This document shows positions 105 to 61,700 of a stretch of DNA of 64,000 nt, one piece after another. Numbering within the stretch: position 1 is the first letter of the stretch; each line of letters begins with the position of its first letter. The stretch is from Perkinsus olseni (lineage: Eukaryota): contig JABANN010000089.1 in NCBI GenBank assembly GCA_013115125.1, forward strand, positions 1-64,000, given 5' to 3'. A model generated the notes under the pieces. It was not told the DNA's origin. It saw only the letters and a list, made by a program, of their open reading frames with translations, and ran no database searches. A program made the position numbers and the translations under genes.

Positions 105-778
105 GTGAAGGGAGAACAATATTGGTTTTTTGAAAAAACTTTTTTCACGAAAGACTCGGTATTGCGTTCGCAAAGTATGAAGGGAAAACATGAATAAGAA
201 GTAAACCTGTTAACAAGAAGCCGGCGAAACAATTGTGCTCAGTTCTATCGAGATTGACTCGAAAAAAGAGAACAGCTGGTCTATCCAGCAGTTGTCGGAA
301 GTTCCGCCTCGGAACCTGCAATCCTGTGGACGCAAAAACAGTTCTATACGGGAACAAATCTTGTTTAAGAGTATATAAGATCGGCCGATCGGACAGTGTC
401 CAAAATTTGGTCAATGTTGTCAAAAGTGTCGGCTCCAAGTAGTTGTCGACAATGTTGACTCAACATCCTTGTGTCGAAAAAATGTAGGCTCTCGAACGGA
501 CAGTAAAGTGTCGAAAGAGCAAAAGCGGCAACCGGATATCAGCTTGATGGCGAAAATCGGGTAGGACTTACTGTGGACAACTCGACATGCGAAAGATGCT
601 AAAAAAACCTGCCCTAAAAGCACGCATGGTTGTTTTTTCGACACGAGATGTCGAGCGGAAAACCGCACTTGCGTGCGCTTTTCACGAATTTCGTGACCAA
701 AAGCATACCTTACGGGGTTTTATGGTCACATGTCGCGAAAAATGGTTTGGGCAGGAAAGAGCTGTTGTCCAAAGGAGC

Positions 779-850
779 GCTGACGCAAATGAAACAGCGT
801 ACTTCTCGACTTCTATGCGGGAGGTCCCGGGTTCTATCCCAGCGTCAGTC
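779..850 (+). pseudogene. Degenerate tRNA-Arg(TCT)-like sequence (tRNA pseudogene or SINE head)
   Basis: Acceptor-like stem GCTGACG/CGTCAGT about 71 nt apart, anticodon-like loop CTTCTAT and T-arm-like CCGGGTTCTATCCCAG. The D-arm/A-box is degenerate. Confidence 0.55.
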
Positions 851-2868
851 GGTTTTTTATGTAGGTTGGTCGCGCGTCACTTACTGGCGTATTAGGTGAT
901 TTGTAAAGAACTACTTTCAGTTAAATTTTTACTGACTATTCAATTGCTCCATGAGAAGATCAAGATTAACGGAAACCATACCGGACTCGCTCGGTTTCCA
1001 CCCGACCTACTTCCACCTACCCTTTAGCGGAAAGAAGCCCACCCGTGTAGCGGGCGTTGCTGAGTACTACTATTGATACCCAATTTTCACGCGATGAATT
1101 TTCCTTTCTTTAGTCGGCCACGAAGTGGCTCTGACGTTTCTTTGAGGTGGATGTCTGCATGTAATGACGCTGCTCAGTGTAACGAGGGCAAAATCGTCGC
1201 TCAGGCCACCCGTGTCGGTTAGACGAAACCGACGACCTAGAAAAGATAGACTCTGATGCAGCCGTCTCGTAAGAGCCCCTGCCTGTGGTATGCCGCCCTC
1301 ATCTCTCTTTCGCAGGCCGTCAACGGTCGCCTCGGTGACAGTATCGCCTCCGCCATTCTATCGGGCTAGTGGCAAGACTGTCACTTTTGGTGACCAAGTT
1401 TTGGTACGCTTCTACGAGTGCCATGGGTTGGACAGACAGACACTGGGGGGAGAAGAGAAGAAACCCTCCCCCCGTCTCGATGAGACTGCTCATAGCGGGT
1501 CTCACCCTGCAGGAGTGGTACTGGATACTGGTAGTACTGGGCCTATTAACTCACGGCGTGAAGGACGAGCCCGAGCGAGCTAATCGTGAGTCTCACGCTT
1601 AGCTTGCTCGGGCGCGTGGTGAACCACTGCCAGTGACGGTTTTCGTGACGTACCATAGAAACCGATCGTCCTTCTTATCGACCTCGTCGGGTTGTTCAGT
1701 GAACCGATCTTAAAGCTCTAGATCTGTTTTTAAGCTTGGAGTGGTCAGGGGGCCACTCCTGAGCCTCAGGGTGGGTGTGCTGAATATCAACGCCGTATCC
1801 GAGTATTTTTATGACGCGCGATTCCACCTCATTTTACTCGCGTAACTGGGAAGTTTACTCTCCCACTGACATCGATTTATCCACGCTGGTCTCGGAATGC
1901 TTACCCCGAGTTCGCCGTTCTATGGTACGATACCGAAATTTTCCCTTTTTGATTCTGAATATAGCAGAAAGATGAGTAGGAGGTTTCCTCACTCAACTGC
2001 ATTTGTCAGACACAGTGGTGAAGTCCTTTGATGGTCACTCGTCTAGAGTGGTCCAAGCGGGAGGAGCAGCCAGCCAGTTCACTGACCTTGGTGAATTGAG
2101 GCAACTGGCGATTAGTATGGGGGAACGGCCACGCCCGAGTGTTAGGAACAGATCGAGGTAGTCTGGGTTGTTTCAAGCTTGTTGAAGTATTCCGCAATTC
2201 GAGTGGGTGCGTGTGATTTTTAAATCCAACGCCGAGAACTAGGCTTAGCCGGACTGAAACAGCTTTATTGTATTCTAATTTTACCGATGTATTTTGGTTC
2301 AAGAGGGATTGGCTGAGGCAAGTTTATCGAAATAGGAGTGTAGCGCTCAGACATGAGACTAGGATGAACCTTTCTTTTGCACCGACAGAATCTGCTCCCA
2401 CGGCCGCGACTGAGTGTGTAAAGTAAGGCGTGTGAAATTGCGGTTGCCTCCCGGGGAAGCTCGCGGCGGTCTGCATCGCCGGTTTATTCAGTATGATCGA
2501 TCTCCCTAGGTTGTTCTTGCGAATTCGTATAGCTGTTCTATGGGTTGTTCCAACATTGACTGTCAATCCTCGGACTCTGGTCCAGTCGTTGCCTTCGCCC
2601 TTGCCAGGACGTGCGCTACCGACTTGATCTCCTTCATGCTGGAACAGGACTCGCGGCCGAGGTATCGCAGGGGAGGCGGGCGAAGAAGGTGAGTATCACG
2701 TGTTTTAGTGTTCTTCGCGGATATCTCTTATACACCGTAGAAGCAGCGATCGACATAATAGAACATTGACGTATTTCTATCAGCTCTAGGACAGTAATCT
2801 GACCAGCTAATCCATTGTTGTTGTATTTGTCGAACAATGCATATTTTTCAGCGAAGACAGTCTAGATA

Positions 2869-3256
2869 TATCAGGATCAATGTAAAGTCTAACAGACTCA
2901 TGCTACAGTATGAATGTATCAGCATCAATGTAAAGTCTGATNNNNNNNNNNNNNNNNNNNNNNNNNNNNNNNNNNNNNNNNNNNNNNNNNNNNNNNNNNN
3001 NNNNNNNNNNNNNNNNNNNNNNNNNNNNNNNNNNNNNNTATAGACTCATGCTACAGTATGAATGTATCAGCATCAATGTAAAGTCTGATAGACTCATGCT
3101 ACAGTATGAATGTATCAGCATCAATGTAAAGTCTGATAGACTCATGCTACAGTATGAATGTATCAGCATCAATGTAAAGTCTAACAGACTCATGTTACAG
3201 TATGAATGTGTCAGGATCAATGTAAAGTCTAACAGACTCATGCTACAGTATGAATG
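2869..3256. repeat. 48-bp minisatellite spanning an assembly gap
   Basis: Unit TAGACTCATGCTACAGTATGAATGTATCAGCATCAATGTAAAGTCTGA repeats on both sides of the N run and gives 16-aa periodic spurious ORFs. Confidence 0.95.
2942..3038. other. Assembly gap (N run)
   Basis: Run of N. Confidence 1.
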
Positions 3257-3839: not shown

Positions 3840-5301
3840 GCATATCATTATTTACCTATCCTCCCGAAGGTTCCCTCTTTCATGCCTACATTTTATCGCT
3901 ATTGCCGCTGGATCGCTGCCGTTTGGTCATCACCATTTCTACTGTTGGCCTATTGATTATTGTAGGGTGAGTTTTAGTAGAGCTAGGCTCCCTTGTACGC
4001 TCGCCCATTATACCTACTGCTAATACCGCACCATTCCCGTCTTCTCATGAGGAAGAACATTCTGCTGTGACCATTGCTGCTACCGTCGTTGAGGTAAACT
4101 CCCTAAAGGCCGATAAACGGCCTTGAATGCTGATGATGGCCACTCTCATGGTGGTGACACGTATGCCTCTATTGCAGGCCTATTCAGTATTATTATTGTT
4201 CGGATGGCTGCTGTTGCTCTTCCTATTGTGGATGCGCTGTATAAGAGGGTCGTCTGGACCTTCTTGATCCATCAATAGGAGAGAGGTTGCTGCTGCAAGG
4301 TTGGTGAGATTATCATTAACGCCACTCGTTGGCGATATCTGTTGTTGCCGTCGTCTACTCCCCAGCGGTTGCATTTCTGTGCTTATAGTAATTTTATGCG
4401 ATTCTATCAGCGACCGAGTCCATCATAATATACCCCACGATGATATTGGATTCCCTTTTCTGTATTCTCAGAGCAGTAGTATGTGGTGAGCGGCGATGAT
4501 GATGTTGATGGTAAGGTGAATTCGACTCAACTCCTATTTTTGCTACTACCCTGTCAATGGTCGGTGGTGGTACCTTGCTGTACTAGGCAAATATTATTCA
4601 GTGATGCTATTGCCGTTGCATCAACAACTCGGGCTGCGGAAATTCTCATTTCCTCTGCGATTTTTCCGTGCGTCAAGAGGTGGAGACGCATCTTATAACC
4701 TTGAGGATCACCATGACGAGCTGAAGATTCCTTTGGCAACGCACTGCCAGCAGTTCGAGGCGCCGTGAGGGACTCTTTTCCGCTTCGCCTGTCATTGGTG
4801 CGCCTCCTGGGTACCGTTGAAGTGGTAGTTTTCTATTAGAGAATGTAGCATCCTACTAATACTACTGCTCGCCCCTGTTTCCTATTATTATTTATTGCAG
4901 ACTGTAAAATAGATTACGGTCGTTAGTAGTGCTCTCACAGTGTCTGCTGCTGCTGCTGCACTTACAACTTATGATCACGGCAATAGTACTCGAGGCAGTA
5001 GTCGTTCGAGTCATCTGTCGTCGTCTGTGTCCTAGTCCTTTTTCCTCTCGTCGTCGTCTTCGTTATTGTCGCTGTTGTTGTTTTTGTGGAAACGTCGTCG
5101 TAGTCGTCGTTTATAGTACTCACAAGGCGCTAGGCCTGCTGTTGCTGCTACAACCACTACCAATACCACACTCACACTGCTCACACGTCTGAGGGATGTC
5201 TCTTTCCCGTTAACAATACCACACTTCTTCCAATCGGTTGATGATGATTGCGTGGTGGTTGATGCTCGGGGTATCCGACATTCTCTATTATTGGTCATCA
5301 C
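3840..5301 (-). pseudogene. Decayed low-complexity coding-like sequence
   Basis: Short - strand ORFs with poly-N/Q/D/A tracts and a hydrophobic segment (5032-5301, 4180-4374), interrupted by frequent stops. No domain recognised. Confidence 0.3.
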
Positions 5302-5563
5302 CGATTTGCAGTAGCGACACTGCCGTATCGTTTAGACACAGGTCTCTGTCCGTGTGACCGAATCTTGAGTTAACTCAGTTCATCATGGTATGGGACGAGG
5401 TTGGAAGATACCATCTCGCCGCTAGCATTACTCACGATATGAGTTGCGCTAGGTCAACCATTTTGGTTGGGGCGCGGGTGTTTTAGTCGGACCTGGGCTT
5501 CTTTTGGGACAGGGCTGGTCTGTCGGAAGGTATGGCAAATGAAGGGACTGTAGTAGTGCGATA

Positions 5564-33991: not shown

Positions 33992-34063
33992 TCCGCGGTA
34001 GTATAGTGGTGAGTATTCCTGCCTGTCACGCAGGAGACCCGGCTTCAATTCCCGGCCGTGGAA
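33992..34063 (+). tRNA. tRNA-Asp (GTC)
   Basis: Cloverleaf TCCGCGG-TA-GTATAGTGGTGAGTAT-T-CCTGC-CTGTCAC-GCAGG-AGAC-CCGGC-TTCAATT-CCCGG-CCGTGGA-A, with a T-run just downstream. Position 53 is C instead of G. Confidence 0.88.
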
Positions 34064-47370: not shown

Positions 47371-49344
47371 ATGCTGAGCAAGCTTGCCACTCGCGCTCAG
47401 TCTGGCTGGAGTGCCGTTAGGCATGCTAGCACATCGACCATCCGTGGATACAAGGCAAGCCTTCCATCTGTTGCTTTGATGTGGTTGGATTTCCTCGTCT
47501 ACAGGTTCATGACCACTTCTACGATGCTGTTGTCGTTGGTGCTGGCGGAGCTGGTCTCAGAGCCGCGTCCGGCCTGGTTGCTCACGGGCTTAAGACGGCC
47601 TGCATCTCCAAAGTCAGTCTCCGCGGTCAAAGGTTCCTCCAACTGAATCGTGTTTGTATGTCAGGTCTTCCCGACTCGTTCTCACACTGTGGCTGCCCAA
47701 GGAGGCATCAACGCCGCCCTTGGTAACATGACCGAAGACGACTGGCGCTGGCATGCCTACGACACAGTGAAGGGCTCTGACTGGCTCGGTGATCAGGACG
47801 CCATAGAGCACATGTGCCGTCTCGCCCCTCAAGTTGTTCTCGAGCTCGAGAGCTACGGTCTGCCTTTCTCCAGAACTAAGGAGGGGAAGATCTATCAGAG
47901 AGCTTTTGGTGGTCAGAGCCTCAAGTTCGGCAAGGGTGGCCAGGCCTACAGGTGTGCCGCAGCGGCTGACCGCACTGGTCACGCCATCCTTCACACCCTC
48001 TACGGTATGTCTCTCAAGTACGATTGCTTATTTTTCATCGAGTACTTCGCCCTGGACCTTATCATGGACCAAGATGGCACCTGCAAGGGTGTCATCGCTA
48101 TGAGCATGGAGGACGGGTCTATCCATCGCTTCGGTGCCCATCAGACGGTCATTGCTACTGGTGGTTACGGCAGGGCCTATCAGAGCTGCACCAGCGCTCA
48201 CACCTGCACTGGTGACGGTGGTGGTATGGTATCTAGAGCCGGCCTTCCTCTGCAGGATCTCGAGTTCGTACAGTTCCATCCCACTGGTATCTTCCCGGCT
48301 GGTTGCCTTATGACCGAAGGCTGTCGTGGGGAGGGAGGGATACTGAGGAACAGCGAGGGGGAGCCCTTCATGGCAAGATATGCTCCCACCGCGAAGGATC
48401 TGGCCTCTCGGGATGTGGTCTCCCGGGCTATGACGCTCGAGATTCGCGAAGGCCGAGGCGTTGGCCCCAACAAGGACCACATTTACCTGCACTTGGACCA
48501 TCTCCCTGCCGAAACTCTGAGGGAGAGGCTGCCGGGTATCTCTGAGACAGCGAAGATCTTCGCTGGGGTTGATGTTACTAAGGAGCCCATTCCCGTCCTA
48601 CCTACAGTACACTACAACATGGGTGGTATTCCTACCAACTGGAAGGCCCAGTGCCTGGACCCGACTCCCTCTGACCCCAGCAAGATCGTTCCTGGTCTAC
48701 TTGCGGCCGGCGAGGCTGGCTGTGCTTCCGTTCACGGAGCGAATCGGTTGGGTGCCAACTCTCTCCTTGACTTGGTTGTGTTCGGCCGTACGGCTGCCGA
48801 CACTGTAGCTGAGATCGTCAAGCCCAACTCTCCGCCCGTGGCTCTACCGAAAGACGCTGGCGAGGCTACCATCGACCGATTTGACAAGATACGTAACGCA
48901 AAGGGCTCAGTGTCCACAGCCGACCTTCGTACTAAACTTCAGAAGACTATGCAGACTCGGGCTCCGGTGTATAGGAATGGTGATGACCTGAAGAAGGGTT
49001 GCGAAGAGGTCCGTGAAATTATGAAGGAGTTTAAGGACATTGGCATCAAGGATCGTACTTTGGTCTGGAATACTGATCTTATCGAGACTCTCGAGTTGGA
49101 AAACCTCATCACTCAGGCAGCACAAACGGTTATCTCGGGAGAGGCCAGGAAGGAATCCCGAGGAGCTCATGCCCGAGAGGACTTCACCGAGAGGGACGAC
49201 GAGAAGTGGATGAAGCACTCCCTTTCGTACCAGACCAAGCACAATATTGAGGAGTCCGATATCGCCCTGAAGTACAGAGCAGTGGTGGACCAGCCACTAG
49301 ACAGTGAGATGCATCACGTGCCCCCGGCCAAGCGGGTGTACTAG
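47371..49344 (+). CDS. SDHA: Mitochondrial succinate dehydrogenase flavoprotein subunit
   Basis: A transit-like N-terminus and motifs [53 protein letters not shown] and RKESRGAH. Two short 5' introns, the first being GC-AG at 47455-47504. Confidence 0.97.
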
Positions 49345-52500: not shown

Positions 52501-55500
52501 AAGAGTTAGAGATACAACTAGGGGCTATGGCTGAGAAGCACAAGGAACGAGAAGGTAGGAGGGGTAATAACGGGAAAGACGCTGCGTCGGAATGGGTCCC
52601 ATTTGTGAGCCCGCTGTGTGTTAGCAGAGCATCGCGCGAAGTTGCTTTGACGTCGTGGGCTGTAGTACCATTCCTGTCCAGATTCGTTGGAATCGATGAT
52701 ACGGGATTTGGAGGCCAAGGTGGACAGCGCGGTAGAGGGCGGCACCTCTCTTGAAAGGGCCGCACGAAAGGACGGCGAGTGAGGAAAGATCGATTGTGAC
52801 TTGGTTGATTATTTGGTGTCCTGTGGAGGTCCTCTCCCGTACCCAGACTAGCACTGAGCTCCAAAGCGTCGGCCCCAGCTGTTTCCCCGCGAAGAAGCAG
52901 GAAGGACAGCGCATCAGTCTTAGCCAGGTGGAGCTGTTAGTCTTCATTAGTGACAGCCCGTGTCTCATTAGGAGCCCTCGGGCACCGGTCAGTCCACCGC
53001 CGAAGGATAGGGGCAGGCATGTAGCACGGAAAGTCCACAGAGCTTCGCTGTCAACTGAGGGTAGGCTAACTGAGGGTGATGCAGTGGTTGCTGCCAAGAT
53101 ACTCCTTACAGGCTCTCATGGTGGTGCCCCGAGCAGTGTACGGCAAAAGGGTGCTATCCTGCTGTTGGAGGGGGATGTAGCGGAGGAGTGCTCTCAACTT
53201 GTGAAGGCATTCGCCAAGCCTTTGGAGGTCATGTATTTGCAGTAAGTTACTCACCGGCGGCGCGAGTGTTCGCTGCCGAGCTCTGATCATGACGATTCCC
53301 CGCTGCTCCCATTCCATTGGCTATTGAGTTACAACACCTCCTACTTCTCCTTCGTCGTTTATGATGGCCATGATAGGTACTGCAACCAGACTGCTGGCCG
53401 TTCGCCGCTCAAGCATCCCCGGCACGGCTCCGATGGGCAGCATAGCCGGCGGCGGGACTCGAAGCATCACGTGAGGCCTAATGGTGAGCTCAGGGTTGAG
53501 GTCTTCCCGGACCCTCAGGATTCATCACCAGTCATACCACTCCTCAACCTCCTCACACTCTTGCGTGACGCCAAGATCATCCCGCACATCACACCTCGGA
53601 GCGTGGCTGGTAGGATGTCCTCATTTGGACACTATGTCCCCTACAACTAGTTCGCCCTCAGAGGAGTTCATATCGAGTATGGAACATCCCATACGGTTGC
53701 CGCAGACGATAGAGCTCATCGCCCAATGCGCCTTCTTCGGGATGGATCAGCAGGAGTGCAGGGCATGGTCCCAATGGGTAGTAGCCTCCGTCCTCCTCGC
53801 TGCTGTGAAGCGTCGGCTTTCAAGGGAGTCCTTGTCCCTCTGCCGGAGCATCAGCAGTCGCGCCAGTTGCAAAGCATGCTGCAACATCTGATGAATCTGG
53901 CGACCCTTCCTAGAGGGGCCAAAGGGGTCAGCGATAAGATCAGTATGAGTATCGATGAGTGGAACTCGGCGGTAGGCTGCCCGTGTATGAGTATGTCTTG
54001 GTATTTCGTTGGTGTAGGTCCGGAAATTAGTCCGTCGATACGTACGGTCGGTCATTGACTCTTTCGATCCCTCCACCGGAGCTCTCCACGGTACGGCCGA
54101 AGTGGCTTTCTTGGTGGGACTCGGTTGTCCGTTAGATGGCTCGCTCATCCCACCGGGCTTTGCTCTGTCTTCCGATGGCACCTCCCTCTATGTAGCGGAC
54201 AAGTCCTGGAGCCGGGAGGGCAGGACGGCCAAGCAAGCACGGCAGCAGCAGGCGTCGTCGAGGCCGGTACGATAACTTCTACTTTATTCTCTGTTCAAAT
54301 ATAGACTTCATTGCCAGGTGCATACTGAGCTGTTGTACAACGTAAACGCCACTGGCTCCTCCGACGCCAGTCTGGACTCGTCTCCGAGGGACCGGCGGTC
54401 CTCAGCTGGCAGTGCAGCGAAGCGGCATTCCGGAAGGCTCCGGTGAGGCCCGTGAACTGCGGATGGATGATCCTTTCTCTGACGACTACGTCTGATATTC
54501 TTATTTGCGGACGGTGGTCGAATCGGTTTGACAGCGAGTGCGGTGGAGGCGTGTCGCATGCTGCAGGTCGGGGAGCATGTTGAATCATGCCGGTGGGCTA
54601 GCCGGGCCGTCACTTACACCGCCAGAGGAAGCCGAAAAGTTCCTGCTCGGCCATGATCGAGCACAGAAGATTCTCAGGGAAGGGTGGCTAAACAAATCTG
54701 CGCACGCAATACACAAGTATGGTCTCCGCATCGAAGGCTCTTCCCACCGCCCTCCTCCGCAGGCACTTCCTCCAAACGCAGTCCGGTGGTGTGGACGCTT
54801 CGGCAGGGCTACGGCTCCCGGCCTTCACCAAATGTCTTACCGGTTTCCTCAAACTCCTGCCCGATGTCAGCAGTGCGAAGCTGCTCTTCCGTCGCGTGGC
54901 CGGGGCCGGATCCCAGGACGTAGACGTTGGAGGCCTTGGGCGAGCGGTCCTAGCCTCGGCCAGTGTTACGCCGTACACTCAGGCAGCCATCAAGGAATGG
55001 CCGTCGGCTCCTCAGGTAACTGCTGCGCCTGCTTCTACTCTGAATGGCTATACTCGTCTTTTCAGCTCATGGCTGAGCACCCTGACATGCTATTGGATGT
55101 GGCGGTGCAATCTCTCTACCAGCGGGACTTAAAGGACTTACAAGCCTTGAGATTGAGGCTACATCACTTTAGTGCTGGTTCTCTGCCTCAACAGACACCG
55201 GAGCAGATCAGGTGCGTCCCAGGGTGGCAACTGCGTGGGGGTGGTGAGCTTGCGGGCAGGCGAGACTTGGCTGAGCTCCAAGCAGTGGTCATCCGTTCGG
55301 GAGCGGTGCAAGTGAGCATCCCAACCGAGGAGCGCCACGCTCCAGTCGAGACAGCTGCGGAGGATATAGACCCTGCGAAGCCTTCTACCCCTCCACCGGA
55401 AGGACCCGAGGTCGCCGATGCAGCTGCGGCGGAGGAGGAGACTCTTGAGGAGCTCCGACCAAGGGCAGGGAGCGATGCCGTGGACGGCGTCCAAATCAAT

Positions 55501-56045
55501 GATACCCCGGCCCCAATTGAGAGGTGGTCATCTTCTTCAATCGGGCGCTCGAAACACGCAAGTGTGGCTCTTGTCAGTCACCCAGCCGAAAATCAGCCGG
55601 CGCCGGTGGCACCTGATCAGTCAGAGCTCCAGGAGCCCTCGGCCGTGGGGTCTGCAGAAGACGGAGATGAGACGGAAGTCAATAGGTGAGCCATGATACT
55701 GCGATATTCTCTTCATCGAATGTGGTCAGTCCTGATTCCCTGAATCAACAGCATCGAGACGGAGAAGATAGACCAGGGCTGTCCGAGTAGGTCCTGTGGC
55801 TCCCGCTACAGTTTTGCTTCCAGCCCTGCTCCTTTCCTACACTTGTTGCCGCCACCTTAGATCCTGTCAGTAGCCAGTGGCTCGAAGTTGAGTATTTCAG
55901 GCCCGCCGACGCAGTAGAGGAGCCCTCGGCTGCCGGGGGAGAGGTAGCAGATGAATCCGCCGGAGGCAACGAAGAGACTGCGGATGTCGCGGTTGAGAAT
56001 GATGACGACAACGGCGGAGTCGTAGCTGAAAACCCGTCTCCGTAA
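49551..56045 (+). CDS. Large hypothetical multi-exon gene (possibly more than one gene)
   Basis: Consecutive + ORFs (49464-50006, 50400-51848, 51912-52754, 52751-53245, 54538-55689) with GT-AG junctions. Helical middle region, NHL-like ALSSDGTSLYVAD segment and an acidic tail ending at TAA 56045. Confidence 0.5.
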
Positions 56046-56468
56046 GCCATTCCCGGTACTCACTGTATCGGCGGTATCAGTCTCTGTGAAGATTTTGCCG
56101 CGGTTCATTTCAGGGAAACGGATCCCGTTCAAGGAACATAATTAAATGATAATTAGTGAGACTCTGGAGATATGAGGTTCTGGTATTCAGCATTCAGGTA
56201 CTTTACCAGAGAAACATCGTACTATTGTTCTGCCATGATCATGCCATCACCATTATAATCGTTGTCAATACAAGAAGTGTCGTGTTATTCGAGTTTGGTA
56301 CCGAAAGGGCCAATGAAAGACTAACTACTTATGAACCTGTAGAACCACAACCCGTTTGAGCCCAGCATCGCGAGCCTTGAGAAAGCAACCCGAAACCCGA
56401 ACGAGCAGACTTTAGGCAATTGAGAGCTAGTGAAAGAAAGACTGTGTGTAGGATTTTGCCACTAACAG

Positions 56469-56553
56469 TCAGATTGGCTTGAGTGTACTATTATTATCAT
56501 ACACTTATAGATGCTTGCCTGTCTCGATGAGGGAGCGGGTTCATCATTACAGC
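56469..56553 (-). ncRNA. Candidate box C/D snoRNA
   Basis: C box ATGATGA (56547-56541) and D box CTGA (56472-56469), about 80 nt apart, directly after a U17 copy. The target was not identified. Confidence 0.55.
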
Positions 56554-56561
56554 TTTCGAAG

Positions 56562-56614
56562 GGATGTTGCCGGTATGGTTTGTCTCGCAGCTAATGGCCA
56601 CATAGTAGCTACTG
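56562..56614 (-). ncRNA. U17/snR30-like snoRNA, 3' part (truncated by gap)
   Basis: m2 AAACCAT plus ACA box, identical to the 3' end of the 56834-57028 copy. Confidence 0.6.
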
Positions 56615-56710
56615 NNNNNNNNNNNNNNNNNNNNNNNNNNNNNNNNNNNNNNNNNNNNNNNNNNNNNNNNNNNNNNNNNNNNNNNNNNNNNNNNNNNNNN
56701 NNNNNNNNNN
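56615..56710. other. Assembly gap (N run)
   Basis: Run of N. Confidence 1.
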
Positions 56711-56739
56711 TATCATCACTGCAATAAAGAACAGTATTT

Positions 56740-56825
56740 GCTGTATCAGAGAGAGGAACACTTGTTTCTGCTTTTATCCCCACGGAGAATCGGACTGGGG
56801 CGGCAGATAGGATCATCATTACAGC
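56740..56825 (-). ncRNA. Box C/D snoRNA, SNORD31(U31)/snR67-like
   Basis: Terminal stem GCTGTA/TACAGC, C box ATGATGA, guide TGCCGCCCCAGT with D' CCGA (antisense to LSU rRNA CUGGGGCGGCA), and D box CTGA. Confidence 0.85.
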
Positions 56826-56833
56826 TTTCGAAG

Positions 56834-57028
56834 GGATGTTGCCGGTATGGTTTGTCTCGCAGCTAATGGCCACATAGTAGCTACTGCAAGTCTAGGAATA
56901 TATCGGCACAGCATTAGGAGCGCAGAGGCACTCAACTAACGCATTTTGTCTCGGATGAAATCGTTGGCGACTATACACCACGTGAAGATGCTCGCATAGA
57001 CGATTACACATGAGTAGTTAGAGGCTAC
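56834..57028 (-). ncRNA. U17/snR30-like box H/ACA snoRNA (downstream copy)
   Basis: H box AGACAA, m1 ATATTCCTA (56901-56893), m2 AAACCAT (56853-56847), basal stem TGCCG/CGGCA and ACA box at 56839-56837. Confidence 0.85.
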
Positions 57029-57313
57029 TCATGTACTCATCCAAGATACATTGCCATTTCGGTGCGTTACAATCACCGGTACCCCACAAGAAGAGGCACA
57101 AGCGCGAACACGCAACAGTAGCTGTTTGCACACGAACAGGTCGACAACACTATGGAAGAAGAGCAGTCGAGGGAGAGTGTGCAGAGCCTAGCCCACTGGC
57201 AACGCAACAGCTATCGGATAACCCTTATCAAGGCGCAGAAAGCAACCCCTTGGCAACCACACGAAACCGATTCGGCAAGTGGGAGTTTCAACAGGTCATC
57301 CACAGAGTGCACC

Positions 57314-58566
57314 TTAATCGAAGAGATCGAAGTCCATCTCCTCCTCTTCCTCTTCCTCCTCCTCGGCGGGAGCGGCGGCAGCCTCAGCCTTGGCCTCACC
57401 AGCAGCAGCGCCGGCAGCGGGGGCAGCAGAGGCGAACTTGGAAGGATCCTTGAGGAATTCCTGAAAAGAAATCAGTCACAGCGATTATACCAAGCGACAG
57501 TTTATCTCAATAAAAAATTATTGCCAATATGGTTTTTCTCTCAGCTAATGGCCACGTAGTAGCTACTGAACGACTAGGAATATATCGGCACAGCATTAGG
57601 AGGGCCAAGGCACTCGACTAACGCATTTTGTGTCGGAGAGGACCGTTGGCGACTATACACCACTGGAAGGTGCTCGCATAGACAGTTACTGCGAGCATGG
57701 TTAGAGGCCACACCGCAATCCCTCCGATCGACGAATAAGCAAAAATCCACCCGTGTTACCTTAAGCTCCTCAACCTCAGGGAAGGTGAAGTCGATATCGG
57801 CGCACAAGGCAGCGATGTTCTTGAAGGCGTTGTTGATGGCATAGGGCAAGGTAGCCTCGTTGGGAATACCAGCCTCACGAGAGAAGGCAGCCAAGTAGGT
57901 GACACCGTGCATGAACTTAGCAACGAGATCATCATCACTGATATCCAAAGCAGCGGCGTCGTAGACCTCGCCGTTGTCATAGATAGCCTCAAGCTCAACA
58001 CCGTACTCGAAGGGACGGATGTCCAACTTCATGAGAAGAGCCTGCTGAGAGGCAGTGACCTTCTCGCCCTTGGTGACAAGAGCGACATCGTTGGAGATTT
58101 CGATGGAACCCTTGACAATCTTGGTGGCGATGTTCAAGGCCTGGAAGAAGTTGGTCTGAGAGGGGTCCAAAGGAGTAGGACCAGCGGGGATGTTGACATC
58201 ACACTGAGCGACCATACCGGCCTTGGCCATAGCGGGAACCTTATGCTCAGAGATGAGCTCACGGATCTCATCAATAGGGGCCATGCAGAAGATGAATCCA
58301 ATGTTACCCTTGACAACGCTCAAGAGACGGGAGAGATCGACGTCGAGCTCCTCCTCATACTGCCTGAGGGCGGTACGGAGCATGGTGTTCTTGCCCATAA
58401 CGATGACGGCCTTGCCGCGGAGAGCAATACGGATCTGCTGCAACTGGTTGGATCCGACATGGTCGACGGAGGCGATGAGGATCTTCTCACAGTTGGCGAC
58501 GAGGTCCTTGACCCTATCGAGGTAGGCGGTCTTCTTAGCAAGCTTCTGGGGATCGCGAGGTGCCAT
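57314..58566 (-). CDS. RPLP0: 60S acidic ribosomal protein P0 (uL10); exons 58566-57760 and 57460-57314
   Basis: Motifs HVGSNQLQQIRIALRGKA, MGKNTM and FFQALNIATKI, plus the spliced acidic tail AEEEEEEEEMDFDLFD. GT-AG intron at 57759-57461. Confidence 0.97.
57516..57712 (-). ncRNA. U17/snR30-like box H/ACA snoRNA (intronic in RPLP0)
   Basis: H box ACACAA, m1 ATATTCCTA (57583-57575), m2 AAACCAT (57535-57529), basal stem TGCCGATAT/ATATTGGCA and a terminal AUA variant box. Confidence 0.85.
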
Positions 58567-58797
58567 GATGTGTGGGGACTGCGAGCTAACGGCTCTACAA
58601 TCAGTTTAACCACTGAGGGGGTGTGGTGAGTTGCCACAGGACCGCGCATGGAGGAAATCGATCACCTGATCGATTATCGCACACAGCGAGGCTGAGCAGC
58701 AGCGCATCTTCTCCGCACCGTAGAGAGCCCCTGAGCAACGTGAAAGTCCGTGCTTTACTCAACGAAAGAAGTAAGCAGGTACTTTGTAAGTCTCATA

Positions 58798-61700
58798 ATG
58801 AGTGAGTTTGAGGCATACGCTGCGGCAACAATCTCTCCAATGCTGAGCCGAGCGCTTGCCGATCTCTATCAGCAGCGCGGTGACTCGGTTGAGCCCGTGG
58901 AATATCGTACTGACTGGCTCAAACTCTGGGCAGCTGCACAGGGTAGTGTAGGGGGTGGTCATCGGGTGCACCACCTTCGTGTTCAACCTTTGCGTGCCTT
59001 CAGTCGCCGAGCGTAGTCGAGGGGAGAAGGCTCGAAAGCAATCGGAATACACAGAGAAAGTTAAGGCCGATGTAACGCCGCTTGGCTCTTTTGGAACAGT
59101 CACAGCTTCATTATGGTGAATCAGTTTCGTGAGAAACAAGCAAAACATGCGGAGGAGGAAGAAAGAGCCTCGAGGCCATTTAAGATGCTTAACGAAGTCG
59201 TACGAACAGTTGCCGAGGTCGACTATCCCAAAGGTGATGCGTCATGGTGTTCTTTTGTCGGGCATGACAGACCTCTTTGCGCCACTGGTGGGTATTCGCA
59301 TAGATGGTATCTAGGTTTCAGGCTAGCTGTTGAAACGCAGATGCATAATCGGTGGCGATTCTCGTCTTGCTGTAAAGATGTGAAGTGGTCGTAAACGACG
59401 CGTTATGCCGCTGGGCGGACATGAAACTACTGTTAAATGAGAATGACCTCACGCGCTCGGGACACGCCTTGTCATTTCCCGGAACATCTTGTAGACGTGG
59501 AACGTTTAAGTTGGCAGTCGGAAGCGAGCAATACTTGTTAGATTGTAAATACTGCCAGCGTTTCCCGAGCCCAGCCGTGTGGCAAGAGCTGACGGACACT
59601 GTACGAGGGGCCGTTGCAGGATGCAGCGGATGCTACGTTGGAGAGGTTGTCACCGATGGGGAAGGAAGCAAGCATTTACGGTAGGCCACCGCTCGATACT
59701 GCGATAGCCGTGCGAGTCCGGTGTCTGACTCACCCGGCTATAAGGTATATTGCAAATTCTGGCGTCGCCCCTGGGAAGGCTAGGTTGGAGGAAGGTGAAG
59801 GAGTCGTATGGAAAGAAGTAGGGTTATGGAACATCTCCTTGTAGAGTACGGTCATGTAGGTGTTCGAGCAACAAGAGGAGGAAGAGGGGGAAGGGGAATC
59901 GTCTAAGTCGAGGCAACTGTGAGTTGTCCTATGCGTCCAGTGGTCACGTCTAGTCTTGCAAGCTGCAACCTCATTAGCCTACTAGAGTGCGGCTTGAATT
60001 TTCACGGGCCTTGCCCTCGATGCGGTCTCCCTAATGGTCCATCGCCACAGCGAGGATTCCGCTAGCTGGGTGTAGAGAGGCCTGCTCAGGTATCTTCCGA
60101 ACGTCATGGACGTGGCTGAAGTGAAGTACTTTGACTACACCAAGCCCGGTTCCTTTCTAGCTATACCGATATGGTAGAGCAGCCCCGTGGCGAGAGCCCT
60201 CGGGCGAACGATGCCCTCGTTCTCATCAGCTACTCCAGCGTTCTGAACAAGGAAGGTCTGGAAGCTACCGTTGCGGACATGAAGGAACGCCAAGCACAGT
60301 TTGTGGAGGAGATGGCTGCGTGAGTGGCCGTGGATGAATGCTGGTGGGGGAGGCCTGCCTTAGGTATGGAGAGGCCAAGACTCAGTACGATCAGGCAGTG
60401 GCCGAGCTACAGGAGGGCGATGAGGTGACCTCCATTATACGGCATGCGTTCTTTACGAATATGCGTGGCTCGGTTCACTGAGGCATGTGAGATATGGCTC
60501 CTTCATAGGCCCCCGAAGAGCCGGTCGAGCCGGTAATTAGGGATCTTAACTCACTTGAAGGAGTAACTAGGCAGCTGGTTTTGTGCGTCGATACCCTTGG
60601 GGGAGAGGGTGGATTGTTAGAGATCTGCCAACAACACAGGGACAAGGTAATAGATGGCAGTGGCTGCGAAATGGTCGTGGAGTCGATTGATGCAGTTGGA
60701 TGAGCTCTGCCGTCACCTTGGGGAGGCCATGGCTGACACAGAACTACAAGCCGTCAGAGAACAGGCGGAGTATAGTGTAAGCGTGGCGTGTGCGAAGGGG
60801 ATTGCAGATCGCCGTGTTAGACATCGGAAGCTGGTGAGGGCAATCGTACGGCCCTAATGGCTAAGTACACGGAGGCCACTACCGGAGAGGCACTACAGAG
60901 GATGGAGAAGCAAGTAGCTGAGGATATCGAGGCACTCGGGGAAGGTTCGTGGTGATGCTTCCGCGATGGGAGTGGACATCATTGTCTTAGATGTGAGTGA
61001 TGATAATAAGGAAGTCATCCGTCTAACACGTAAACTTAATACACTGCGGTAGCCTGCTGAGGGTCCACAATTGAGCGGTAGTCAGGGTAGCTGGTGTAGG
61101 TCTGCGTTGGAGGGTTCTGTGAAGACGGAACTACTGGTTGATTTGAGCTCTCGAAAGTTGCCAGAGGAAGCGTTGGCGACACTCATGAAGGTTTCCCTTG
61201 CTGACATCACTCCTGTTTGGAGTAGCATCTCCTAGGTGGTGCTCCTCTTCCTTACTGAGCACGATCCGTCTTCCTTTGCTGAAGACACCCCGGTCCAGTG
61301 GTCTCAGCTGGTGACTGCCTTTCACTCTGAAGAGGTTTGGAATAAGGTAGGTAGGGTGCTTACGATTGCCTTCAGCGTGGTGGTGGGCAGATGATGGCTG
61401 CGGATTTGAGACGCCCCAGGCCGGGTGTCCCAGCTGGGCACACCTTAGCGATGGCGAAGGCTCTGATTGAGGAGGCAACTCAAACAGGAGGGTTGAAGGG
61501 CGAGGGTAGGCTGTTAATGGGAGGTGGTGACCGGACTGTGTATGGTCTCTTAGATGGTAGTGATGAGGAAGGGGTGGCTCAGGAGCATCCAGTGGATATC
61601 ATCCTGCTGGGGTTATTGGAGGCAGCAGTGCAGCTAAGAGAGAAGGTGATGGCGATGCTACGGAGTGCTCCGGGAGGTTGCCACTCCTCCGCTCCGCCTA

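Follow-up and report, generated by a model that had tools for sequence, protein, structure and literature searches.

A 64,000-nucleotide (nt) stretch of a Perkinsus olseni contig (JABANN010000089.1 of assembly GCA_013115125.1, positions 1 to 64,000, called the window below) carries on its (-) strand the ribosomal protein gene RPLP0 and, within and behind it, a group of small nucleolar RNA (snoRNA) genes. RPLP0 occupies 58566-57314 and matches the Pfam families Ribosomal_L10 and RL10P_insert; its product is 99% identical to the P. olseni 60S acidic ribosomal protein P0 and 90% and 89% identical to the P0 proteins of P. marinus and P. chesapeaki. With 58566-57760 spliced to 57460-57314, the frame runs for 317 amino acids to a stop; the coding region has only this one intron, of 299 nt with GT-AG ends, and the spliced joint is present in all four of the contig sets examined. 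The intron holds a U17/snR30 H/ACA snoRNA (U17a). Behind the gene come a second U17 (U17b), a U31/snR67-type box C/D snoRNA (CD1), a further C box that runs into an assembly gap and, beyond the gap, the 3' end of a third U17 (U17c) and an orphan C/D candidate (CD2). We read this arrangement as a ribosomal-protein-linked snoRNA locus with two kinds of unit, the intronic U17a and a mixed polycistron behind RPLP0, and we put the probability of this reading at about 0.72. The features are as follows (UTR, untranslated region; LSU, large subunit rRNA; bp, base pairs).

57760..58566, (-) strand: RPLP0 (uL10/P0) coding exon 1, from Pfam and protein identity
57461..57759, (-) strand: RPLP0 intron, 299 nt, host of U17a, from the spliced frame and contig joints
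57516..57726, (-) strand: U17a, intronic H/ACA snoRNA, from SNORA73, motifs and contigs inside it (H box 57633-57628, m1 57583-57575, m2 57535-57529, AUA 57521-57519)
57314..57460, (-) strand: last RPLP0 coding exon, with the acidic tail, from the spliced reading frame
57224..57313, (-) strand: RPLP0 3' UTR, from contig ends in sets X14, X1 and X2
57044..57177, (-) strand: leader before U17b, from X1 contig 57014-57177
56834..57043, (-) strand: U17b, full U17/snR30, from SNORA73, an X19 contig and pair changes (H box 56951-56946, m1 56901-56893, m2 56853-56847, ACA 56839-56837)
56740..56825, (-) strand: CD1, U31/snR67-type box C/D snoRNA, from Rfam, the terminal stem and guide tests (C 56819-56813, D' 56793-56790, D 56749-56746)
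56805-56794, (-) strand: CD1 D' guide, to the LSU Gm2619 site
56768-56751, (-) strand: possible CD1 D guide to the sarcin-ricin loop, from complementarity to proxy rRNAs
56711..56719, (-) strand: strict C box (56719-56713) entering the gap
56615..56710, no strand: assembly gap, 96 N
56562..56614, (-) strand: U17c, 3' end of a third U17, from an exact repeat (m2 56581-56575, ACA 56567-56565)
56469..56547, (-) strand: CD2, orphan C/D candidate, from strict boxes (C 56547-56541, C'-like 56500-56494, D 56472-56469)

An Rfam scan of 55900-59200 in E-value mode returned 10 matches, two of them to SNORA73 (RF00045) over the full model: U17a at 57726-57516 (35.9 bits, E 1.8e-6; whole-window E 3.4e-5) and U17b at 57043-56834 (53.0 bits, E 3e-11; whole-window E 5.8e-10). 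Both are retained among the seven whole-window Rfam matches at E up to 2. The m1 and m2 motifs, which belong in the internal loop of the 3' hairpin, are exact in both copies, each has an H box (ANANNA) behind its 5' domain, and the closing trinucleotide, ACA in U17b and U17c and AUA in U17a, lies 3 nt from the RNA end. The two copies differ in 46 of 215 columns; their 61 consensus pairs comprise 48 unchanged, 6 with a one-side change, 7 with both sides changed and 0 broken, a count biased in favor of the structure, which was predicted from U17a and U17b themselves. At the Rfam gathering score, the sole match in the whole window is a tRNA, with no snoRNA, which agrees with the original prediction that a mixed H/ACA and C/D cluster lies here unannotated. 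We read the low U17 scores as divergence from the model because the E-values and all motifs agree.

For guide and pairing tests, Perkinsus rRNA was replaced by proxies, namely eukaryote ribosomal DNA (rDNA) found in prokaryote assemblies (38 stretches, of which L027 is a full unit). The six-base cores of m1 and m2 complement the proxy 18S at 800/808 and 835, matches that, being six-mers, are only consistent with the known U17 pairing in this region. U17/snR30 is a family of non-modifying H/ACA RNAs for 18S processing, a class in which the Perkinsus copies would also fall. In the literature, U17 pairs with the expansion segment 6 region of 18S (PMC3177221), and by family membership the copies at this locus would act in 18S rRNA processing (PMC3177221, PMC6315972), which such m1/m2 pairing would allow. 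The features in common with SNORA73 and with ciliate Onc90 are the H box, m1, m2, a 3' hairpin, a terminal ACA or AUA and a length of ~210 nt (PMC3177221). Unlike the SNORA73 reference, Perkinsus has two full copies and a fragment at one locus, with scores below gathering, and one copy sits in the RPLP0 intron while the others stand behind the gene.

CD1 has strict C and D boxes 74 nt apart and a 6-bp terminal stem, which is the only stem longer than 3 bp among the 13 strict C...D pairings of the window (48 strict C boxes). Its C box begins 14 nt past the predicted end of U17b. The Rfam matches are weak (SNORD31, E 0.34; snoU31b, E 2.3; DdR13, E 2.3). The D' guide forms a 12-nt duplex with the LSU Gm2619 site that was equalled by 4 of 400 shuffles, and over the proxies 0-7 of 300 shuffles were as good, in six of six. 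Within the U31/snR67 group (SNORD31, RF00089; snoU31b, RF01285; DdR13, RF01563), both the guide and its register equal the SNORD31 consensus, with D'+5 on the G of Gm2619. CD1 differs from the U31 homologues inspected in its D' box, which reads CCGA, and in a 3' region that complements the sarcin-ricin loop and was not seen in those homologues. The U31/snR67 target is yeast LSU Gm2619, and the Plasmodium counterpart is PFS5 (PMC2656528); on family knowledge, CD1 would guide 2'-O-methylation at the same site. In the viral contigs searched, neither an LSU motif nor a U17 stretch had a match (0 for each). Of what had been called from the letters alone, the intronic U17, the last RPLP0 exon (57460-57314, through which the spliced frame reaches its stop), the downstream U17 and the U31-like C/D, with its boxes, stem and SNORD31 register, all hold.

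The transcription data are contig sets from 4 of the 24 listed runs (X1, X2, X14 and X19). X1 has the RPLP0 spliced joint and adapter ends. Contigs lie inside U17a in X1 (57592-57719) and in X2 (57540-57696), and this snoRNA is necessarily made from RPLP0 pre-mRNA. An X19 contig at 56833-57028 covers U17b, halting one base from the predicted end, and another spans the whole RPLP0 intron. The X1 contig 57177-57014 joins a 134-nt leader to the first 30 nt of U17b. A variant X1 contig, which differs from the window at 56787, 56827, 56830 and 56832, is placed at ~56870-56756 by the distances to its ends, across the U17b-CD1 junction; three of its four differences fall in an 8-nt linker and none falls in a box, guide or stem. 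Because of the 14-nt spacer and this bridging contig, U17b and CD1 are likely to be co-transcribed. The RPLP0 3' UTR ends at 57224 in an X14 contig, at 57244 in an X2 contig and at 57224 at an X1 adapter loose end, a weak hint from contig ends that the mRNA probably ends near 57224. Among the contig pieces listed, none joins the 3' UTR (57224) to the leader (57177).

The original prediction derived these RNAs from RPLP0 read-through or from a single polycistronic precursor, and put several of the spacers at about 10-25 nt. Its U17b-CD1 part is supported by the spacer and the X1 contig, but the continuity from RPLP0 through to ~56200 is not, as no joining piece is listed. Likewise, three junctions have short spacers (14, 26 and 14 nt), but tight packing is not valid for the whole stretch because spacers of 62 and 99 nt surround the last two elements claimed and 270 nt separate the RPLP0 stop from the downstream U17.

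Some observations were left out of this argument. The X1 mean over 57101-57200 (572.4) equals 743.4 x 77/100, that is, one contig ending at 57177 with 57178-57200 bare, and was not counted as evidence; nor was the contig hole at 56101-56500, which is uncovered in all four runs. Summed X1 contig depth peaks over U17b and was unused, as contig depth cannot rank parts. The fold of the leader (z -1.89, 9 of 200 shuffles) was not taken as a feature, and a sigma-70 promoter/terminator scan was set aside as not applicable to Perkinsus.

The two-unit reading would work as follows. The intron, its splicing, the anatomy of the RNA genes and the spacers are established directly; the release of U17a, by trimming from the spliced RPLP0 intron, would follow the known maturation of intronic snoRNAs. 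Behind the mRNA end, U17b, the U31-type C/D and probably a further C/D would form a short mixed polycistron, made as a single precursor with a leader of ~130 nt and presumably cut in the 14-26-nt linkers; the unit of U17 plus C/D would then have been duplicated recently, or by the assembler. The precursor could be the downstream product of RPLP0 3'-end cleavage or could start from a separate promoter past the poly(A) site, two origins to which we give equal weight, each a little short of an even chance, leaving a small chance for other routes.

Several points weigh against this reading. Both U17 copies score below the SNORA73 gathering score of 74 (53.0 and 35.9 bits), and no U31 model is among the seven whole-window Rfam matches at E up to 2. 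The D' match of CD1 speaks for specificity and not for presence because the proxies were fetched by the U31 target site, which is circular. The contigs tell nothing of strand, start, end or level. X14 alone is recorded as RNA, and its contigs lie over no snoRNA; the RNA status of X1 is a guess. The bridging contig comes from one run (X1), and its extent was derived from one table and is not listed. Finally, the unit beyond the gap may be an assembly effect, as its exact repeat ends on a C box, and CD2 holds the copied 5' stem arm of CD1 without a 3' partner.

The layout is already known in kind from Plasmodium and Trypanosoma. In Plasmodium, PFS9 lies in the RPL7a 3' UTR, PFS10 is intronic, and PFS11-PFS12 are dicistronic downstream; the dicistronic precursor was detected by reverse transcription PCR, and read-through was found for one snoRNA and not for another (PMC2656528). 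The likeness lies in an alveolate parasite whose snoRNAs occupy a ribosomal-protein gene's last intron and the sequence downstream of such a gene, with co-transcribed neighbors. The Plasmodium units, as described in the same source, are C/D only, single copy and ~290 nt apart, whereas Perkinsus combines H/ACA with C/D, has 14-26-nt linkers and has a duplicated U17. In Trypanosoma brucei, the SLA1 locus is a mixed cluster of snR30, TB11Cs2C1 and TB11Cs2C2 (PMC2978370, PMC6411936, PMC3091756). It resembles the Perkinsus locus in layout, with C/D snoRNAs directly behind snR30, and differs in having no ribosomal-protein host. TB11Cs2C2 uses its 3' end to pair with a 3' LSU fragment and has a role in processing rather than methylation (PMC2978370). 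A review labels TB11Cs2C1 "U31" (PMC6562600), and because the primary paper gives it pairings with the small subunit rRNA and the 5' external transcribed spacer (PMC2978370), we do not take an snR30-U31 order as conserved. Ciliates have U17 and snoRNA clusters as well (PMC3177221, PMC3273799). The Perkinsus layout joins what is customary in Plasmodium, the placing of snoRNAs within and behind ribosomal-protein genes, to what is customary in trypanosomes, a mixed cluster with snR30 at its head, and is by itself ordinary. What is added is that genes for U17/snR30 and U31, which slip under Rfam thresholds, are now placed in Perkinsus, a lineage between apicomplexans and dinoflagellates; judged by titles and abstracts, the literature searched contained no Perkinsus snoRNA study.

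CD1 may hold a second guide, absent from the original prediction. In proxy rRNAs, its segment 56768-56751 is complementary to the sarcin-ricin loop together with the 3' strand of the loop's stem. The match begins at D-2, as guides do, and D+5 falls on the final A of the GAGA tetraloop, the equivalent of E. coli A2662. Of the four proxies in which the loop is present, three have it as the best D-guide site, and in both L003 and L019, 0 of 300 shuffles did as well. Over 21 loop contexts fetched regardless of the loop, the 18 nt before box D match at 12-16 positions (median 15). A metagenome scan with the predicted 14-nt loop target returned 17 stretches. BLAST to L027 identifies 15 as rDNA and leaves two that are not, and none of the 17 is assignable to Perkinsus; because the pattern came from the guide, this shows only that natural LSUs hold such a target. 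We lean, with some reserve, towards true pairing between the 3' guide and the loop.

The strongest rival, which keeps a substantial minority chance, makes CD1 a single-guide U31 homologue and the loop match a chance product of a pyrimidine-rich stretch. The start at D-2, the shuffle results in L003 and L019 and the agreement across the 21 contexts speak against chance. On the other side, in L027, the cleanest full proxy, the best D-guide site lies elsewhere and 28 of 400 and 21 of 300 shuffles are as good; in L034, 44 of 300 shuffles equal the loop match, which is not significant; an unrelated chance result at 2 of 300 occurred among the 36 guide tests; and, among the homologues inspected, Tetrahymena TtnuCD11, Plasmodium PFS5 and three Rfam U31-type consensus lines have no such 3' element.

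If pairing is real, methylation of the loop directed by CD1 would still fall somewhat short of an even chance because no methylation was seen at the predicted site of Tetrahymena TtnuCD32, which pairs at the foot of the same stem (PMC6315972). Human SNORD91 targets G4618 in helix 95 (PMC12288042), and a review has the sarcin-ricin loop seemingly unmethylated in plants (PMC11542601). SNORD91 and TtnuCD32 resemble CD1 in their box-D-side complementarity to the sarcin-ricin stem-loop region; they address the stem, whereas D+5 of CD1 is the last A of the tetraloop itself. The literature searched, to which subscription journals are external, contains guides to the stem only and none to the tetraloop, and a full-text search did not find the predicted loop target sequence. 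The loop-related terms looked for are absent from PMC13487219, and the supplements of PMC3273799 (all but file 1) and PMC2656528 hold no loop-directed guide for the motifs queried.

The fullest version of this idea, which we consider unlikely, is a double guide that would address Gm2619 and, over 14-17 nt, the sarcin-ricin loop, either methylating the last A of GAGA or chaperoning the folding of the loop, and that would be made together with an amplified U17 behind RPLP0. The A in question helps to activate elongation-factor GTPases, and the RPLP0 product forms the ribosomal stalk next to the loop. Were it true, both protein and RNA components of the factor-binding center would come from a single locus, and the loop guide would matter more than the layout, since a guide to the tetraloop is unseen in the literature searched. 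In the two-unit reading itself, CD1 would guide methylation at Gm2619, possibly with additional pairing to the loop.

The next question is how much of the locus beyond the gap is real. The strict C box at 56719-56713 lies three bases before the 96 N, with 9 bases visible, and is probably the start of a further C/D snoRNA; it stands where it had been predicted, as does the U17 3' end on the far side. The latter belongs to an exact 74-nt repeat, in which 56614-56541 equals 56886-56813 and which takes in the U17 3' end, the linker and the following sequence up to the last base of the C box; U17c is identical to U17b. The length of the gap is probably nominal because 96 N could not accommodate both the remainder of a C/D and the 157 nt that U17 lacks, and the other gap of the window has 97 N (2942-3038).

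CD2 has strict C and D boxes 79 nt apart and sits behind a U17 as CD1 does. The box part of the earlier C/D call stands, but the candidate has no terminal stem (1 bp was found), no Rfam C/D match on its own strand (among five matches at E up to 10) and no significant rRNA guide. Many ciliate C/D RNAs also have no terminal stem (PMC3273799). Its best D' match, 10 nt to the 18S 5' end beside a poor D', is equalled by 22 of 400 shuffles and by 15-163 of 300 over six proxies, and for the D guide 61-221 of 300 shuffles are as good, on proxy rRNAs and for rRNA targets only. A U27 identity for CD2 was rejected: with the 18S match, D+5 would miss the U27 site by four bases, and the RNA differs from Plasmodium PFS4. 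CD2 as a guide to an LSU motif near its D-side sequence was also rejected, as just seven bases pair in five proxy contexts. We give about even odds that CD2 is a real C/D snoRNA.

It is possible, though we think it rather unlikely, that U17c and CD2 are an artifact of the assembly, in which an allele or a paralogous unit was set in tandem over a nominal gap, or was joined through a shared C box, and that the true locus has two U17 genes. The repeat is exact and terminates on the C box, the gap is shorter than the missing sequence and near the other gap in length, and the variant U17-CD1 linker carried by X1 means that more than one form exists; the unpartnered stem arm in CD2 points the same way. 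Against this, both flanks of the gap are otherwise unique in the window, and X1 has depth in 56501-56600, though possibly from the repeated part.

The two elements claimed farthest downstream fare worse:

56350..56406, (-) strand: long stem, not supported
56187..56250, (-) strand: weak C/D candidate, not supported

The long stem (56406-56350) is no better than chance (z -0.87; 35 of 200 shuffles fold as stably), and as an H/ACA hairpin or processing signal it was rejected (z -0.87 and 0.46). The C/D candidate (56250-56187) has a mismatched C box and a best Rfam score of 16 bits (E 5.3); a C box with at most one mismatch and a CTGA at its spacing occurs 62 times on the two strands of the window, and in 11 of the 12 proxy tests the candidate's guides did no better than chance, the exception being in one proxy only. 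We propose that 56406-56187 is intergenic sequence. Since neither element has support as an RNA, the cluster most probably extends no farther than 56469. Downstream, it is bounded by a convergent gene on the (+) strand at 54532-56045, which apparently ends near 56045, has no Pfam family in the part searched (54535-55689) and has an X1 contig at 55901-56037.

Two other accounts of the precursor remain to be weighed. In the first, which seems improbable, the locus would behave as in kinetoplastids: spliced leader (SL) trans-splicing at the AG at 57151-57150, in concert with polyadenylation near 57224, would separate the downstream precursor from RPLP0. The site at 57172-57150, a pyrimidine tract (16 of 20 nt) with its AG, ranks in the top 1.5% of 4041 YAG sites; SL trans-splicing is in use in Perkinsozoa (PMC9399869), and in trypanosomatids the precursors of snoRNAs undergo both trans-splicing and polyadenylation (PMC6562600). 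The X1 leader contig, however, crosses the AG unbroken, none of the listed loose ends lies there, and ~60 sites of the window score as high. The second, the full original model of a single precursor from RPLP0 to ~56200 with the stem and the last C/D also as RNAs, is about equally improbable: the elements do share one strand, with no intervening gene and no AATAAA or ATTAAA between 56000 and 58700, the leader contig lies within 47 nt of the mRNA end, and a Plasmodium snoRNA has been shown within the RPL7a 3' UTR (PMC2656528), but the stem and last candidate are at chance level with 62- and 99-nt spacers there, in three runs the 3'-UTR contigs go no farther than 57224-57244 and no listed piece reaches the leader, and the read-through test on Plasmodium PFS11, downstream of a ribosomal-protein gene, was negative (PMC2656528).

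A few further observations were made in passing. Upstream of the RPLP0 start, an X1 contig at 58710-58900 may be an outron, an upstream transcript or library DNA. Elsewhere in the window, on the (+) strand, the tRNA gene at 33992-34063 (Rfam 57.7 bits) has the anticodon GTC by eye, which would make it tRNA-Asp, and 47647-49344 is an unbroken 565-amino acid frame for a succinate dehydrogenase flavoprotein (Pfam FAD_binding_2, Succ_DH_flav_C). At least 38 prokaryote-assembly stretches (L001-L038) carry eukaryote LSU rDNA, which is contamination; L027 and L031 are tandem full rDNA units with a group I intron. In L053, the LSU end is followed after ~290 nt by a 5S rRNA gene of the same strand, at 679-800 (-). 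Metagenome contig L042 has an RNase MRP RNA match at 631-971 (+) followed by a 5S gene at 5206-5324 (+), both on the rRNA strand; ~130 nt separate the LSU 3' end from the MRP match (50.3 bits against a gathering score of 50, E 9.7e-12), and it would be unusual for an rDNA spacer to contain an MRP gene.

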